Counted from the stretch's first letter, positions 20,551 to 32,000 are shown. The stretch: 32,000 nt of DNA from Phreatobacter sp. (GCF_016793595.1 NZ_JAEULY010000016.1:1-32000); one strand, 5' to 3'. Numbers and translations are program-made. The notes: generated by a model from the sequence alone, not told the origin.

Positions 20551-21590
20551 GGCAGGTCTCCGGGTTGGGGGGTGGTCAGCGGCGTGAGGCGGTAATCGCC
20601 GGTCGCGGCGTCGAGCCCTTCGACGCGGGCTAGCTCGGCGAGGCGGCGGCCATGTCCGTCGCGGGCCAGGACGGCGATGATGTCGATGGTCTCGGCCAGC
20701 AGCGCGCGCGGGACCGTCACGACGGCCTCCTGAATGAGCTGTTCCATGCGGCGCAGCGCGCCGAGCGCGGTTCCGGCGTGGATGGTGCCGATCCCGCCGG
20801 GATGTCCGGTGCCCCAGGCTTTGAGGAGGTCGAGCGCCTCGGCGCCGCGCACCTCGCCGATGGGGATGCGATCGGGACGTAGCCGCAGCGAGGACCGGAC
20901 GAGATCGGACAGCGAAACGACGCCATCCTTGGTCCGCATGGCGACGAGGTTGGGCGCGGTGCATTGCAGCTCGCGCGTGTCTTCGATCAGGACGATGCGG
21001 TCGGTGGTCTTGGCGACTTCGGCCAAAAGCGCGTTGACGAGCGTGGTCTTTCCACTGCCGGTCCCGCCCGCGACGAGGATGTTGGCGCGGGCTTCGACAC
21101 CCTGACGCAGCGCTATCGCCGCATCCAGTCGCATGATGCCCGCCGCTGCATAGTGATCGAGCGTAAAGACGGCGACGGCGGGCTTACGGATGGCGAAGGC
21201 CGGCGCGGTGACGACAGGCGGCAACAGCCCCTCGAACCGCTCGCCCCCTTCGGGCAACTCAGCCGAGACGCGCGGAGACCGGGCATGGACCTCGGCACCG
21301 ACATGGTGCGCGACCAGGCGGACGATGCGCTCGCCGTCCACCGCAGTCAGCGACAATCCCGTGTCGCTGATCCCTTCGCCGAGCCGATCCACCCACAGCC
21401 TGCCATCGGGGTTCAGCATCACTTCGATGACGGCGGGGTCGTCCAGCCACGCGGCGATCGACGATCCGAGCGCCGTGCGCAGCATTCGCGCGCCGCGTGA
21501 TCTCGCCTCGGATCGGATCGGATGAACGGTCAACGACTGGCCCCTGCAAAGGACCGGGCGAACCGCCGCCCGGCTGTCGGGGCACATCAA
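20547..21590 (-). CDS. trbB: Conjugal transfer ATPase TrbB (VirB11 family)
   Basis: Walker [10 protein letters not shown], VirB11 His box ([10 protein letters not shown]), MLRTALG...[17 protein letters not shown]-terminus. The start is uncertain: TTG 21590, ATG 21587, TTG 21533 (AGGGG RBS) and ATG 21485 are all possible. Confidence 0.9.
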
Positions 21591-21802
21591 GAGACGCAGA
21601 AATACTCGGGCTGCAACAGCTACTTGTCAGCGTAGTAGAGGGGGCGGCAGATACGCATCCGGCGGCGATGCCACTTAGCGTGCGGTGGCAGCGCGCAAGT
21701 CTCCAAACTTCATCGATTACGAGTCGCACGACGGCCGGATTTTTGAGGCAGGTGAGCCTTTCGGGTAGGGTAATTCGTTTTCCGGCCGCCTACACGTTGG
21801 GT

Positions 21803-22429
21803 ATGACGAAGCGAGGAAGACCTGCCCATCCCGATACGCTCACGCCCGCTGAGTGGCGCGTTGTCGAAGGGGTCCGGCATGGGTTGACTAACCCTGCTAT
21901 CGCTGCCCGGTGCGAATTGACGCTTGATGCGGTGAAGTTTCACGTAAGCAGTGCGTTGAGCAAGCTCAACCTGCGAAGCCGGCTGGAATTACGGCAGTGG
22001 TCGGGGGTACGAGCCGACTCTGCGCTTGTAACGCAGCAAGAAAAGGCGGCAGTGCCCGCGTGGTCGCTCGGGCAAATTGCGCGCGTGACCCGCGACCTAA
22101 GAAAGACTGCGGATTGGCTACGCGATGTCGTCGGTCTGAAAGAGCTTATGCGCTTTGAGGATATGACGTTCTTCGATTGCGGAAATACACGTCTCTACCT
22201 TTCCGTTGGCGATCCGGCTACCAATTCACTGATTTATTTCCGTGTTGGCGACATTCATGCCGAAGTCGAACGTCTTTGCGCGGCGGGAGTGTCCATTAGA
22301 AGCGCGCCTCATCGCATATATGTGCACGACGATGGGACCGAAGAGTGGATGGCATTTTTGGACGATCCAGACGGTGCTGCTTTGGGGCTGATGAGCGTGA
22401 TCGCGTCTACAGAAGGAGGAACACCATGA
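21803..22429 (+). CDS. LuxR/GerE-type HTH fused to a VOC (glyoxalase-like) domain (208 aa)
   Basis: N-terminus LTPAEWRVVEGVRHGLTNPAIAARCELTLDAVKFHVSSALSKLNLRSR (GerE HTH). C-terminus LRDVVGLKE...FFDCGNTRLYL...FLDDPDGAALGLM (VOC). Starts at the internal ATG at 21803 of the track ORF. Confidence 0.7.
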   Translation: MTKRGRPAHPDTLTPAEWRVVEGVRHGLTNPAIAARCELTLDAVKFHVSSALSKLNLRSRLELRQWSGVRADSALVTQQEKAAVPAWSLGQIARVTRDLRKTADWLRDVVGLKELMRFEDMTFFDCGNTRLYLSVGDPATNSLIYFRVGDIHAEVERLCAAGVSIRSAPHRIYVHDDGTEEWMAFLDDPDGAALGLMSVIASTEGGTP

Positions 22430-22878
22430 AAGCCGCTGTGCTAGTCGCCGCCGTTCTCGCCACCATGCCGTCCAATACTCTAGCGCAAACCGCGAAGGCG
22501 CCGGTGCTCACCAACGGCCGGTTTGAGCAAGTGGCTTTGACCGTCGCAGACCTTCCGACAGCGCTGACTTTCTATCGCGATCGGATAGGGCTGCGATTGC
22601 TGTTCGAGGCGAACCAGATGCTCTTTTTTGACGTGTCCGGAACACGGCTGATGATCGCCGCTGATGGAAGGCGGCAAAGGTCCGCGACGCCGACCGGTAT
22701 CCTATACTTTCATGTCGACGACTTCGAGGCTGCTCTGGTCAGATTGCAGGAGTCGGGAGCAAAACTCATCGGTGCCGTCGAGATGGTACAATCGACGCCC
22801 GCTGGAACCCTGCAACTTCAACAATTCGAGGATCCAGATGGCAACATGCTTGCCATCATGGGGTTCTTGGCTCGCTAA
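22426..22878 (+). CDS. Secreted VOC-family protein (150 aa)
   Basis: Signal peptide MKAAVLVAAVLATMPSNTLAQ followed by a VOC module (FYRDRIGLRLLFE ... FEDPDGNMLAIMG). GGAGGA RBS. ATGA overlap with the upstream gene. Confidence 0.7.
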   Translation: MKAAVLVAAVLATMPSNTLAQTAKAPVLTNGRFEQVALTVADLPTALTFYRDRIGLRLLFEANQMLFFDVSGTRLMIAADGRRQRSATPTGILYFHVDDFEAALVRLQESGAKLIGAVEMVQSTPAGTLQLQQFEDPDGNMLAIMGFLAR

Positions 22879-27382: not shown

Positions 27383-28273
27383 TCATTGCGGTCGGCCCGC
27401 GCGGGCGCGGGGGACGAACAGCGTGTCCGCCTGCGTTTCCGGTGACGAGGGAACCGCGATCTCCTGCGCTTCGGTGGCGCGCGCCGCGACCGATCCCGGC
27501 GCATCGGATGTGTCGTCGGATTGCGCGGCAGACGACGCGGACCCGCTACCTGTGATGCGGACGAACAGTGCCGAACGACGCCACGCGAAGCGGTCCTGCG
27601 GCGCACTCACCGCCGTTTCGACCGCACCCCGCGCGCCGACCACGGCCGTAAGCTGGGCCAGGTAGCCGATCGTCTCGGCGGGCAGCGGACGGCCGCGCGA
27701 CACATAGTCGTCGTAGCGCCCCGGTCCCGCATTATAGGCCGCCAGCATCGCGCTCGCGTTGCCGTAGCGGTCGTGCATCTCGCGCAGATAGGCCGCGCCC
27801 GCCATGATGTTGTCGCGCACGTCGAATGGATCGGGGCCGAGACCGTAACGGACGCGCAGCCCCGCCCAGGTCGCAGGCATGATCTGCATCAGCCCCATAG
27901 CGCCAGCCCGCGAGACAGCGCGCGAGTTGGCCCGGCTTTCGACGCGCATGACCGCCCATATCCACGCTTCGGGAATCCCGAACCGCCGCGCGGCGTCGGC
28001 GACATGACCAGCATAGGGATGTGCTGCGGCCGGGGCGGCGACGGGCGCGTCTTGCGCCCGAACCGTTCCCGGCGCAGCGCCACAGGACAGCAGGACGGTC
28101 GCAATCAATATGGCCGATCCGACTCCGCTTCGCCGCCAGCCTGCCAGCGTGCTCGCTGCGGTAAAGGGTTCGCGCCAAGCGCCGGCCTTTGGCCGCCCTT
28201 GACCCCCGCTGCGCGCGCCGGCCGGCCTTTGGCCGAGCGGGACGAAGGGATGAGACGGCTTTCCCGCGAACAA
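27383..28273 (-). CDS. Lytic transglycosylase (SLT domain) of the transfer apparatus
   Basis: SLT motifs VMRVESR, GLMQIMPATW, AGAAYLREM, AAYNAGPGRY, after a signal peptide (RRSGVGSAILIATVLLSCG). Start uncertain: TTG at 28273 is the only canonical in-frame start between the signal peptide and the DUF736 gene. Confidence 0.8.
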   Translation of the reverse strand: MFAGKPSHPFVPLGQRPAGARSGGQGRPKAGAWREPFTAASTLAGWRRSGVGSAILIATVLLSCGAAPGTVRAQDAPVAAPAAAHPYAGHVADAARRFGIPEAWIWAVMRVESRANSRAVSRAGAMGLMQIMPATWAGLRVRYGLGPDPFDVRDNIMAGAAYLREMHDRYGNASAMLAAYNAGPGRYDDYVSRGRPLPAETIGYLAQLTAVVGARGAVETAVSAPQDRFAWRRSALFVRITGSGSASSAAQSDDTSDAPGSVAARATEAQEIAVPSSPETQADTLFVPRARAGRPQ

Positions 28274-28298
28274 AGGGATGAACAGGGATCGCACCGGC

Positions 28299-28631
28299 TC
28301 AGTCCTGCTCGCGCGACTTGGGCTGGCGGTTCCAGCGCAACGACCAGGCCGATTTGTCGCCCGTGTTCTGGAACAGCGCGGCGCGGATCGGCTGCGCGAA
28401 CGCGGGGTCGTCGATGCGCAGCGAGACGTAATCTCCGGCGCGTTCGCCGGTCTCGTTCCAGCCCGCGCCGATCTCCGGGCCTTCGCTGTCGCCGCGGTGG
28501 ACGCGCCAGTCCGGCGCCTTTTCGGCGTCGGTCGGGTCGGCGGGAACGATCGATATGCGGATGTCGAGAGTCGCCGTCTCGATGATGCCTTCATAGCCGT
28601 TGGCGGTGCGGAAAAAGCTGCCGATCTGCAT
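28299..28631 (-). CDS. DUF736-domain protein
   Basis: MQIGSFFRTANGYEGIIETATLD..ISIVP...KAPDWRV is the canonical DUF736 N-terminus. 110 aa from the internal ATG at 28631. Confidence 0.85.
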   Translation of the reverse strand: MQIGSFFRTANGYEGIIETATLDIRISIVPADPTDAEKAPDWRVHRGDSEGPEIGAGWNETGERAGDYVSLRIDDPAFAQPIRAALFQNTGDKSAWSLRWNRQPKSREQD

Positions 28632-28666: not shown

Positions 28667-29224
28667 TCAGGACCGGACGGCACGCCACCTCAGCGGCGCT
28701 TCGGGGATGTCGCGGGTGAGGATCGAGATGGCGCGGCCGAGCACGGTCGAGGCTGGCAGCGGCCCGAAGTAGCGCCCGTCCAGGCTGTCGGGATGATCGG
28801 GATTGAGCAGCAGCAGCTCGCCGGCTGCGATCGTGCGGCAACCCTGCCACGCGGGCAGCGGGCGGCCGATCCGGTCACGGATCAGGGCGACGGCAACCGC
28901 ACGTCCATCGACGCTGACCGTCGCACCGATCCGGCAAACGCGCTGTCCCGCCTTGGCGGCGACATGCTTCAACAGTGGCACGTCACGGCCGAGATAACCG
29001 CGCTGGGCCATCCAGCGGCCAAGCGCTTCGGGCGGCGCGACGGCGACAAGCGCACCAACGTGCGGATCGCTGTCGGGCCGTATGCGATAGAGACCGAGCG
29101 GCGCGCTCGCGCTGGCGTTCCAGATGACGCGCGGCAGCGGATCGGTGAGCGCGACGGCAGCGAACGATAGGACGAACACTGACGCAGCGATGGCGGTCGC
29201 ACGGAGATAGAAGCGGCGCGTCAT
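28667..29224 (-). CDS. traF: S26-family conjugative signal peptidase TraF
   Basis: TM anchor, NASASAPLGLY (catalytic Ser region), DSLDGRYFGP. ATGA overlap with the upstream gene. Confidence 0.85.
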   Translation of the reverse strand: MTRRFYLRATAIAASVFVLSFAAVALTDPLPRVIWNASASAPLGLYRIRPDSDPHVGALVAVAPPEALGRWMAQRGYLGRDVPLLKHVAAKAGQRVCRIGATVSVDGRAVAVALIRDRIGRPLPAWQGCRTIAAGELLLLNPDHPDSLDGRYFGPLPASTVLGRAISILTRDIPEAPLRWRAVRS

Positions 29225-29727
29225 CCCTCGATCTCCCGGCGCTTGAGCCAGGCGCGATGACGCTCCAGCGTGTAGGGACGCGGGGCTTGTCCGGCGGCAA
29301 TGCGGTTATGGACGTGCCGCCAATGGTCGGGCGCGGCGTCACAGGGATCGACGCCGGCCGCCTCGGTCGCGTCGATCGCCGCGAGAACCTGACTGACTTT
29401 GGGCCAGCCCTCGATCTTGAGTAGGATGTCGCCACCCGGCCGCACGAATGGCAGCGTCGTGAACGGCTCGTCCGCGCCGACTGCGCGCACGATGTCGATG
29501 CGCGAGACTACCGTGCCGTAGTCGTTCGCCGCCCAGCGGACGAACGCGAAGATCTCGCCGGGCCGGAAGCGGACGATGCGTCGGCGGCGATCAACGATCT
29601 CGTCCACGGCGACGCGGCCGAACCTGATCCAGTGCTCGATCCGCTTCTCGATCCACGTCAGTTCAACGCGGGTCATGCCGTCGTCGGACGGCTGGCGGTG
29701 ACGCATGGGTGACGGCGGGACGGTCAT
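29221..29727 (-). CDS. DUF2840-domain protein
   Basis: TRVELTWIEKRIEHWIRFG...FAFVRWAANDYGTV..RIDIV resembles DUF2840 proteins found next to traF in ICEs. ATGA overlaps at both ends. Confidence 0.7.
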   Translation of the reverse strand: MTVPPSPMRHRQPSDDGMTRVELTWIEKRIEHWIRFGRVAVDEIVDRRRRIVRFRPGEIFAFVRWAANDYGTVVSRIDIVRAVGADEPFTTLPFVRPGGDILLKIEGWPKVSQVLAAIDATEAAGVDPCDAAPDHWRHVHNRIAAGQAPRPYTLERHRAWLKRREIEG

Positions 29728-29990
29728 CGCCGGCTCCGGGCGATGGCCGAATCCGCGCGCGGCATGAGGTCGTCCTGACCCGGATCGGAAGTCGAATGCT
29801 TGATGCCGATGTCGGCCCAGGCGCGCAGGTCATCGACCGAATAGACCACCCTGCCACCGATCCGGCGGTAGGCGGGGCCGGTGCCGAAATAGCGATGCTT
29901 CTCCAGCGTGCGACCGGAAAGGCCGAGAAAGCGCGCGGCTTCCGGCGTGCGCAGGAAACGGGGCGGCAAGTTGGTGGGCGTATCGGACAA
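29724..29990 (-). CDS. MerR/AlpA-type HTH protein, RdfS-like excisionase (recombination directionality factor) candidate (88 aa)
   Basis: FLRTPEAARFLGLSGRTLEKHRYFGTGPAYRRIGGRVVYSVDDLRAWAD is an HTH_17/excisionase signature. TTG start at 29990, 7 nt after AGGAG. Confidence 0.7.
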   Translation of the reverse strand: MSDTPTNLPPRFLRTPEAARFLGLSGRTLEKHRYFGTGPAYRRIGGRVVYSVDDLRAWADIGIKHSTSDPGQDDLMPRADSAIARSRR

Positions 29991-30119
29991 GTGACGGCTC
30001 CTGCGGGCGGTGGCGGCAGGAGGCGTAATTGTCAGAATGGAAGCGGCCGGGTGGGGTATGAAGATGTGCGGCTGCGCGGATGTGACCACCCCCCGCGACG
30101 GCGCCCTTGGATGGGCGTT

Positions 30120-30903
30120 TCAGCGGATGCGGAGCAGCTTGCGGTAATCGCCTTTCATCATGGCGATGCCATCACGGACGAGCCGAACCACGAACGACCG
30201 GGACGCCGACATTTTCCAGTCGCTCGCGGAGAGGTTGGTCGCGTCTTCGCGCCCTAACTCTACCGCGATCTGGCGATAGGTCGCACCGCCATCACGCAAA
30301 TCAACGGCGCGCAGGATCAGCTTCAGGCGGGCTAGGCGATAGGGCGTGAGGGGCCAACCGCGCGGCAACGGTCCGGCCTCTCGACCGAGCAACCGGCGAT
30401 GAAAACGCAACAGGGTGGCGATGCGAGTAATGAAGTCGCGGTCGAGGGGGACGATGGCGGCGAGCGGGCGGCCGGGCGTCGGGTCACGCAGCCATAACCG
30501 ATGCTCGCCGGCCGCGTCGGCGACGATGACGTGGCGCCCGTCGGTCCCCGCCAGGTCCGCGAGCAGCGCGCCGAGCAAGTGCGGATCGACCGGCTGAGCG
30601 CTCGCAAATCCGTCCGGCGCCGCGTCAAGAATGACCGTCACGGCGGACAGCTCCGGCCGCCAGATGACGGGCTCGGTCAGGTCATCGGGCGCGGTGGCGA
30701 AAGGACAACCCCCAGCGCCGCGCGAATGCTGCTTCCGCTGCGTTCTTGGCGACGGCGCCGTCCGCGATGCGCTGCCGCATCTGTGCATGTTCGGCGCGAT
30801 AGGTGCGATTTCGGCGTAGAAACTCGGCGGCTATGTCGGCGCGCCCGAGCGCATCGGACAGTCCGCCGACACGCCGCTGGCGACGCCCCGGCGGCGTCGG
30901 CAT
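30120..30903 (-). CDS. FseA-like DUF6499 + DUF2285 transcriptional activator, split over two frames (+1 shift needed at 30699-30702); either a programmed frameshift or a pseudogene
   Basis: Frame A (30903->30682) encodes ...DIAAEFLRRNRTYRAEH...ARRWGLSF then stops. Frame B continues ATAPDDLTEPVIWRPE... to a DUF2285 C-terminus (LRAVDLRDGGATYRQIAVEL...GDYRKLL). GGGAGGA RBS before the ATG at 30903. Confidence 0.65.
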
Positions 30904-31058
30904 GGCATCCTCCCAGTCGCGCCTTCAGCGCGGTTTGTGGAAGATTGAAGATCGTCATGGAACGCCTGCGCGATAGCGCGAAGGTCGCGCACAACCATGC
31001 CGTGCAGGCGGCAAGTTGGCACGGCAATTGGTCCGAAATGGAGAGTAATCTTAACGAT

Positions 31059-31322
31059 TTAGCCACGTCGGCTTCCTAGCAAATGAGCGTATCCCACTTC
31101 CGTCATCCACCGCGCGCGGGCGAGGTGGCTGTCGTGCATGACCTTCGCGCGACCCGGCTCGCGCGCGACGTCGATGCCAAAGATCAAACCAGCGGCCTCT
31201 CGCCAATCCGCCCCGTCTGCGTCAGCGTCGAGCAACCGCAGATAGTCGGTGAGATGGCCATTATCATAGGCCGTAAGTTCGGCAGAATCGGGCGCGCGAT
31301 CATCGAAAACTTTGGTGTTCAT
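31059..31322 (-). CDS. Stand-alone DUF2285-like small protein (87 aa), QseM-like antiactivator candidate
   Basis: YLRLLDADADGADWREAAGLIFGID...SHLARARWMTEVGYAHLL follows the same pattern as the DUF2285 C-terminus of the adjacent gene (LRAVDLRDGGATYRQIAVELG...GDYRKLL). Confidence 0.5.
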   Translation of the reverse strand: MNTKVFDDRAPDSAELTAYDNGHLTDYLRLLDADADGADWREAAGLIFGIDVAREPGRAKVMHDSHLARARWMTEVGYAHLLGSRRG

Positions 31323-31550
31323 CTCGTTCTCGCCGATCCGCCCTCTTTAACTAATTAGATCAGGGCGCTGCGTTTCGATGAGCGTGACAGGCATGATTGG
31401 CCGCAAATTCTGCATAGCTCGCCGACACTCGAAAAGGCTGCTGATTTGCGGTGCGCCCCCGCAAACAGCTCCTAGACCCGTGATCGGGGAGTTGGAAAAC
31501 CGGAATATCTCGGTCCCTATGACCTTTAGCCCGAGAGCCTGTTGTATACG

Positions 31551-31844
31551 TCACAGGCTCCCCGACCATGCGGTCAAGGATGGCGGCGTCGTCACGGCCG
31601 ACGCCCAACCGGATATTCCGGGGTTTCCACGCCCCAGGCCGCCGCGTAGCGGCCCGAGAGCTTCATAGGATGGCGGGGCTGATTTGACCACCACTAAGCG
31701 CGAGCCGGGCGCCAGCCCGGCGAGCGCGTTTGCGGCCGCGCGGACCTTGGGACGCGCGGCCGCCGCCGATCCGCCGCAGCGGATCGGCGCTAGATAGCCG
31801 AGCCGCAGGGCCGAAGGTCCGGCCCTGCGGTGGCGAACGGTCAT
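31551..31844 (-). CDS. Doubtful hypothetical ORF (97 aa, Gly/Ala/Pro/Arg-rich)
   Basis: The only support is that its ATG overlaps the stop of the upstream partial gene (ATGA at 31841-31844). The composition is not protein-like, and protein-like fragments in the other two frames suggest a decayed gene. Confidence 0.2.
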   Translation of the reverse strand: MTVRHRRAGPSALRLGYLAPIRCGGSAAAARPKVRAAANALAGLAPGSRLVVVKSAPPSYEALGPLRGGLGRGNPGISGWASAVTTPPSLTAWSGSL

Positions 31845-32000
31845 GCTTTCTTGAGGCGTTGCATTCCCTCGGCCAGTGTCCAGAGCGCCCGGTTGAGCGT
31901 CACGTTCTGGTCAATGCCGTTGATGGCGCGGGTCTGCGCCCGGCGTATGCGGCCCTCCGCGTTGCGCTTGCGGCCCTGCAACCCGCCCCGCACGACATTC
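31841..32000 (-). CDS. 3' end of an unidentified gene entering from the right window edge
   Basis: Open frame to the window edge, ending ...RAINGIDQNVTLNRALWTLAEGMQRLKKA*. No family recognised from 52 residues. Confidence 0.4.
   Translation of the reverse strand, partial: NVVRGGLQGRKRNAEGRIRRAQTRAINGIDQNVTLNRALWTLAEGMQRLKKA

Follow-up and report, generated by a model that had tools for sequence, protein, structure and literature searches.

Our analysis indicates that the minus strand of the 32,000-nt stretch of Phreatobacter sp. DNA studied here (hereafter the window) very probably carries a gene for an FseA-family transcriptional activator whose full-length product arises solely through programmed +1 ribosomal frameshifting. 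The gene is divided between two reading frames. The first, a frame-0 ORF equivalent to msi172 (30682..30903, minus strand), starts with an ATG at 30903 and encodes 73 aa up to a TGA stop at 30684-30682; its product contains a DUF6499 domain (PF20109, 3e-17 in Pfam), in which the motif reads AAEFLRRN, and has RRWGLSFRHRAR as its C-terminal end. The second, equivalent to msi171 (30120..30698, minus strand), comprises 192 codons that encode the domains DUF7012 (PF22792, 8e-32) and DUF2285, also named RovC_DNA-bd (PF10074, 4e-34). This +1 frame stays open between 30788 and a stop at 30122-30120, and its translation from 30698 begins with ATAPDDLTEPVIWRPE... The two parts meet at a cassette with the sequence UGG GGG UUG UCC UUU CGC (30697..30714, minus strand), in which a Shine-Dalgarno-like (SD-like) G run is followed by a 6-nt spacer and the slippery UUU_C. 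The minus strand across the fseA junction reads CGG CGC TGG GGG TTG TCC TTT CGC CAC CGC GCC CGA TGA, with UCC at 30705-30703, UUU at 30702-30700 and the C to be skipped at 30699. The initial annotation of this DNA had placed both frames, the junction and the skipped C exactly to the base, and the Pfam matches agree with the DUF6499-type N-terminus and the DUF2285 C-terminus that it described.

The fused protein and its proposed synthesis

When the C is skipped, codons 1-68 of the frame-0 ORF (30903-30700) are joined to the +1 frame, giving a protein of 260 aa with the junction ...RRWGLSF-ATAPDD... When 1.84 billion cluster representatives were scanned in full with HMMER, 806 homologues of this fused product were found. 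Among them are proteins of 254-270 aa encoded by a single ORF, which align to fused residues ~14-258 with an identity of up to 44%. In an alignment of 21 sequences, the fused product is colinear across the junction with the 20 single-ORF homologues, which bears out the earlier proposal that skipping the C restores the architecture of the unsplit proteins. The junction region of this alignment has the consensus RWGLxFPxxP, with W64 and G65 invariant. In addition, R31 (in the EFLRRN motif), D201 and W229 are invariant, and L29 and N32 are nearly so; the W position of (A)WEFLRRN is variable in other homologues as well. Judged by its position in the motif, R31 is the predicted equivalent of R37 in the FseA of ICEMlSymR7A (hereafter R7A), and D201 and W229 plausibly match D210 and W235 of the same protein. 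R37, D210 and W235 have been reported to be critical in R7A FseA (PMC10359603).

An AlphaFold2 model of the fused protein, based on the 21-sequence alignment, has a mean pLDDT of 90.9 and a pTM of 0.85, with disorder only at residues 1-14. The junction is modelled confidently, as the block means of pLDDT at residues 61-80 are 96 and 89. The family profile matches RovC (PDB 6XZ5) with 2e-13 in two stretches, in both terminal domains, and weakly matches QseM (PDB 7UQT) in the DUF2285 part. No match to the PDB was found with the fused sequence alone (phmmer), nor any significant match to the PDB with the predicted fused structure (Foldseek).

We propose that ribosomes read the DUF6499 domain in frame 0 until tRNA-Phe occupies UUU in the P site. 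Bacterial tRNA-Phe has a single GAA anticodon, which reads UUU by G·U wobble and UUC by full Watson-Crick pairing. On a fraction of ribosomes the P-site tRNA would re-pair with the overlapping UUC and the C would be skipped, after which the +1 frame would be read through DUF7012 and DUF2285 to give the 260-aa protein. Unshifted ribosomes would terminate five codons later and release the 73-aa DUF6499 fragment. UGGGGG, located 6 nt upstream of UUU, is probably an internal SD-like stimulator, which is able to base-pair with the anti-Shine-Dalgarno sequence in 16S rRNA and may favour a forward shift or a pause; a role for pairing between UGGGGG and the anti-Shine-Dalgarno sequence has been proposed by the authors of the R7A study (PMC10359603). 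CGC, the codon in the A site in frame 0, is the Arg codon used most often in the window genes (58%), and thus no slow-to-decode codon explains pausing. We infer that the frameshift caps the output of the FseA activator, and by analogy with R7A its efficiency here would be low.

Conservation of the split and selection on the signal

Relatives were sought by a scan of one genome per species, which yielded 37 loci with 68-93% aa identity. They are alphaproteobacterial and belong to Sphingobium, Sphingomonas, Novosphingobium, Sphingopyxis, Magnetospirillum, Prosthecomicrobium, Enterovirga, Brevundimonas, Caulobacter, Methylobacterium and other genera. In 37/37 of these loci, tblastn places the N- and C-terminal parts in +1-related frames, with one nucleotide between the two alignments and at the identical place, and in every locus a frame-0 stop follows 4-5 codons past the junction. 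Because the junction falls at the identical nucleotide throughout, chance is ruled out. The same tblastn comparison found no uninterrupted fseA ORF among the 37 related loci. The two-frame arrangement and the UUU_C, which the initial annotation had supposed to be conserved, are thus kept in all of the related loci (37/37), and the single-ORF close relatives that would have spoken for a simple mutation number 0/37. In a collection of 5.8 billion proteins, the best 120 matches consist of the C-terminal ORF alone; none spans more than 75% of the fused query or contains PF20109. A megablast search of a plasmid collection gave no match to 29700-31400.

The conservation extends to the nucleotides of the site. 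TGGGGGTTRTCYTTTCG is identical in 38/38 sequences (the 37 relatives and the window), all of which also fit the pattern UGGGGGUURUCYUUUCG, so that GGG (Gly) and UUU (Phe) are fixed at the site. Among the confident genes of the window, UUU accounts for 12% of Phe codons, GGG for 13% of Gly codons and GAU for 33% of Asp codons. The U that makes the frame-0 UGA stop is the synonymous site of a +1-frame Asp codon and is invariant in 27/27 distinct sequences. As controls, the Phe codon F28 is TTC in 16 relatives and TTT in 19, and eight codons 5' of the slip codon Phe is encoded by TTC in 34 relatives and by TTT in 1. Furthermore, the DNA of the WG motif in three unsplit homologues reads TGG GGA TGC..., TGG GGC CTG AGT TTC CCC and TGG GGT TTG CGC TTT TGC; the G5 run and UUU_C are absent from all three single-ORF homologues whose DNA was examined. 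Since the G run and UUU_C are fixed in split genes and relaxed in unsplit homologues, they are selected as nucleotides only in the former. Such nucleotide-level constraint is the signature expected of a recoding signal.

Two further candidate elements were considered and rejected. A second in-frame UUU_C occurs at codon 28 (30822-30819, GAG UUU CUA, the Phe of EFLRRN); as a shift site it is not conserved, has no G run upstream and is probably irrelevant. RNAalifold also proposed a structure in which GGGUUGUC pairs with GAUGACCU as a possible mRNA stimulator of the frameshift. Its covariation term is -0.2 with zero compensatory changes, and we rejected it because it lacks such changes and because it would lie inside the ribosome during the shift. 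RNAalifold found no mRNA structure with covariation support flanking the shift site.

The position of the frame switch can be read from the pattern of variation. We calculated column entropy over 27 distinct sequences in a gap-free alignment. Upstream (5') of the skipped C, mean entropy is highest at the third positions of frame 0 (0.41-0.81 vs 0.02-0.49), whereas downstream (3') it is highest at the third positions of frame +1 (0.79-0.94 vs 0.07-0.46). The final synonymous site of frame 0 is the Y of UCY, at -4, and the earliest one of frame +1 is the N of GCN, at +3. As synonymous sites change frame between nucleotides -4 and +3, the switch is confined to UUU_C.

This pattern bears on the possibility that the locus is expressed without frameshifting, as two polypeptides (the 73-aa DUF6499 protein and a DUF7012-DUF2285 protein initiated at, for example, ATG 30788) that associate non-covalently. 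The +1 frame is indeed open 5' of the junction, over a stretch of 44 codons in the window and of 20-138 in the relatives, and gene callers annotate C-terminal proteins of 201-262 aa. However, the annotated +1 ORFs, with lengths of 201, 207, 222 and 262 aa, have starts that are not conserved. Moreover, variation 5' of the junction follows frame 0 and not frame +1, and since the +1 frame is without coding constraint there, an independent start such as ATG 30788 is argued out. Two polypeptides would also leave unexplained why GGG and UUU_C are fixed here and absent in unsplit homologues. In R7A, the separate msi172-msi171 pair gave 0.8% of the rdfS-promoter activation obtained with fused fseA, the product that functions there being one polypeptide made by frameshifting (PMC4755241). 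We regard expression as two associating polypeptides as improbable.

A slightly lower probability still is given to correction of the frame in the mRNA, by RNA polymerase slippage with loss of one G of the G5 run or one U of the U3 run. The homopolymeric G5 run does adjoin the junction, but known sites of transcriptional slippage in bacteria have runs longer than 3-5 nt. In addition, loss of a G would yield ...WGCPF-A..., whereas unsplit homologues conserve WGLxF. The codons past the G run, UUR (Leu) and UCY (Ser), vary synonymously in frame 0, and slippage on the G5 run is excluded because they are still read in that frame. The event in R7A has been reported to be ribosomal, on the basis that frameshifted proteins could be detected (PMC4755241).

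Finally, a single sequence would not distinguish a frameshift from an error in sequencing or from a pseudogene that arose by the recent inactivating insertion of 1 nt, and there are unsplit homologues about 260 aa long. The chance of either alternative is nevertheless negligible: the extra nucleotide occurs at the identical position in 37/37 independent genomes and MAGs, the best 120 protein clusters are all C-terminal-only, purifying selection acts on both sides of the junction, each in its appropriate frame, and identity to the nearest unsplit homologues found does not exceed 44%.

The neighbouring genes and the regulatory regions

Programmed +1 frameshifting of fseA would operate within a conserved gene neighbourhood. 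A qseM-like gene lies directly upstream of fseA in 36/37 related loci. In the window (31059..31322, minus strand) it encodes an acidic protein of 87 aa with a lone DUF2285 domain (PF10074, 1.8e-6 in Pfam), a candidate FseA antiactivator. The product matches the NMR structure of the QseM of ICEMlSymR7A (PDB 7UQT) with E=9e-20 over residues 6-82. Its net charge is -4, compared with +12 for FseA residues 150-260 (the DUF2285 part).

On the other side of fseA, an rdfS-like gene (29724..29990, minus strand) encodes an excisionase, or recombination directionality factor, of 88 aa, with matches to HTH_17 (1.3e-8 in Pfam) and to RdfS (PDB 8DGL, E=1.7e-10). Its TTG start at 29990 is conserved among the relatives and is preceded by an AGGAG Shine-Dalgarno sequence. 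A DUF2840 gene (29221-29727, minus strand; PF11000, 4e-77) and a traF gene encoding an S26 peptidase (28667-29224, minus strand; PF10502, 4e-25) follow, and by analogy with R7A rdfS, DUF2840 and traF would form one operon. Past traF lie genes for DUF736, an SLT transglycosylase, a DUF3363/MobA-type relaxase, the TraG coupling protein and a Trb-type type IV secretion system. The Pfam domains accord with the downstream order that had been assigned earlier, namely an RdfS-like HTH gene, DUF2840, traF, DUF736 and a lytic transglycosylase gene. By homology with ICEMlSymR7A, the rdfS-DUF2840-traF-DUF736-SLT set, for excision and transfer, would be activated by full-length FseA, which the QseM homologue encoded upstream would inhibit; activation of the adjacent rdfS operon is what the analogy with R7A predicts for this element. 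The order of a lone RovC_DNA-bd gene (qseM-like), fseA and an HTH_17 gene (rdfS-like) is also found around three unsplit homologues, and thus the contiguous qseM-fseA-rdfS order is not peculiar to the element in the window.

Several other observations concern the remainder of the element. In the SLT gene (27383-28631 of the window), the longest ORF, with its start at 28594, overlaps the 3' part of DUF736 (28299-28631) in another frame. As the SLT domain begins at residue 200, the true start is probably further downstream. Cargo or defence-like genes are present inside the element at 1694-7122 and 21497-22878, and include an N6/N4 DNA methylase beside a BglII-like restriction endonuclease, an SNF2-family helicase and a NOV_C-domain protein. 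ORFs on the plus strand are found between trbB and traG.

Upstream of rdfS, a conserved block of 43 nt, GGGTGGTCRCATCCGYGCAGCCGCACATCTTCATACCCCACCC (30049..30091, minus strand), is a candidate promoter and activator-binding region. In three related loci in which 0.5-1.3 kb is inserted between fseA and rdfS (L018, L025 and L035), the block keeps with rdfS and not with fseA. We rebuilt the R7A FseA box, GGCGAA-N16-TTCGCC, from oligonucleotides in the supplement of PMC11963761. With a best match of 7/12, no box of this R7A type was found upstream of the window rdfS, and the conserved 43-nt block contains no 6-N14-17-6 inverted repeat with at least 5/6 matches. An inverted and conserved GGGTGG/CCACCC pair flanks the block; it was rejected as an FseA box, its halves being 31 nt apart as against the published 28-bp box. 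Consensus scans of 29800-32000 found neither sigma-70 promoters nor terminators. Closer to the gene, a possible hairpin in the rdfS 5' UTR, ACGCCUCCUGC-N11-GCAGGAGCCGU (29994..30026, minus strand), has an anti-SD CCUCCU that would pair with the rdfS Shine-Dalgarno sequence. Across 28 sequences its stem is invariant and its loop variable, and because of this invariance the stem shows no covariation. The predicted hairpin may add translational control of rdfS.

Upstream of qseM, the window differs from many of its relatives. A structured element of ~95 nt (31474-31567) is located on the strand of qseM and fseA (minus), between a DUF932 gene and qseM, and is shared by the window and 16 related loci (L004-L006, L008, L009, L014, L015, L018-L020, L023, L029 and L031-L034). 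RNAalifold gives it -34 kcal/mol and three pairs with compensatory changes. It resembles sRNA-Xcc1 (RF02221), scoring 28 bits for the window copy and 37 bits for that of L014, both of which are below the gathering score of 53, and at gathering thresholds Rfam matched nothing across the whole window. In the same slot, the remaining 20 loci for which enough flank was available have a divergent gene for a 78-aa Xre-type (QseC-like) protein, so that the structured element (17 sequences) and the QseC-like Xre gene (20 loci) are mutually exclusive. It would be tempting to speculate that the top of the transfer-control cascade is RNA-based in this sublineage, an idea that we consider rather unlikely. 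If it were true, and RNA replaced QseC in the control of qseM expression, the qseM/FseA-frameshift/rdfS circuit would have an interchangeable protein or RNA master switch.

Significance and comparison with known systems

In principle our results contain nothing new; they provide a clean comparative case of the published FseA recoding switch and extend it to ICE-like elements mostly of sphingomonads. In annotation pipelines fseA comes out as two pieces, a "DUF2285 protein" whose N-terminus is spurious and an ORF that is small or unannotated, and because the gene is split in annotation the master transfer activator is missed. As one cassette, qseM, frameshifted fseA and rdfS mark the regulatory core of the element. 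A fused allele, UUU_C mutants and a qseM deletion offer handles for manipulating transfer.

Previous studies have shown that FseA of ICEMlSymR7A is produced by a +1 frameshift at UUUC with an efficiency of 4-13%, and that a conserved G-rich region lies upstream (Ramsay et al. 2015, summarised in PMC4755241). The WGL motif, which is conserved, is encoded by UGGGGG, ~61% of 4709 curated FseA homologues are split with a conserved site, and FseA-like genes that have this site are found across the alpha-, beta- and gammaproteobacteria and are routinely misannotated (Jowsey et al. 2023, PMC10359603). The initial annotation had invoked R7A FseA as a precedent, and rightly so: the UUUC after UGGGGG in the window matches the published signal (PMC4755241, PMC10359603). 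The window gene and R7A fseA share the DUF6499/middle/DUF2285 organisation, the +1-split ORFs, the UUU_C after UGGGGG and a short frame-0 tail. Both elements also have QseM and RdfS homologues, and their backbones have rdfS, traF, a relaxase (of DUF3363/MobA type in the window, where it takes the position of R7A rlxS), the TraG coupling protein and a Trb type IV secretion system in common. The contrast between an acidic QseM and a basic FseA DUF2285 domain, reported for the antiactivator and the activator, is matched in the window by net charge. In R7A, the unshifted DUF6499 fragment is the QseM-binding part.

Nevertheless, the two elements differ in several respects. In the window, fseA lies directly between qseM and rdfS on one strand, whereas in R7A it is part of a TraR-activated traI2-msi172-msi171 operon; no traR or traI quorum-sensing genes were found among the scanned window ORFs, which are a subset, and ~1 kb is visible upstream of qseM. 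The window copy lacks a qseC-like gene, unlike R7A, and the structured RNA-like element is in its place. The DUF6499 motif is AAEFLRRN in the window and AWEFLRRN in R7A. Moreover, the rdfS promoter of R7A has an FseA box (6-N15/16-6) by the -35, which has no recognisable counterpart upstream of rdfS in the window.

RovC of Yersinia (PDB 6XZ5) shares with FseA homologous domains at the N-terminus (AWECLRRN...WG) and at the C-terminus (DUF2285). The similarity is distant, and unlike FseA it is encoded by a single ORF without a frameshift and regulates a type VI secretion system. As regards the frameshift itself, E. coli prfB is similar to the window gene in that the P-site tRNA slips by +1 (on CUU_U, compared with UUU_C in the window) and a G-rich SD-like element lies upstream. 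However, the A site of prfB holds a UGA stop, and its frameshift is autoregulatory and efficient, whereas the A site in the window is the common sense codon CGC and the R7A homologue has a reported efficiency of only 4-13%. The SD-like element of prfB is 3 nt from the slip codon; since the G run of the window is 6 nt from UUU, its role as a stimulator is uncertain. Among these systems the closest counterpart is that of R7A: the window locus belongs to the published FseA family, for which frameshifting of this kind is an already known phenomenon.
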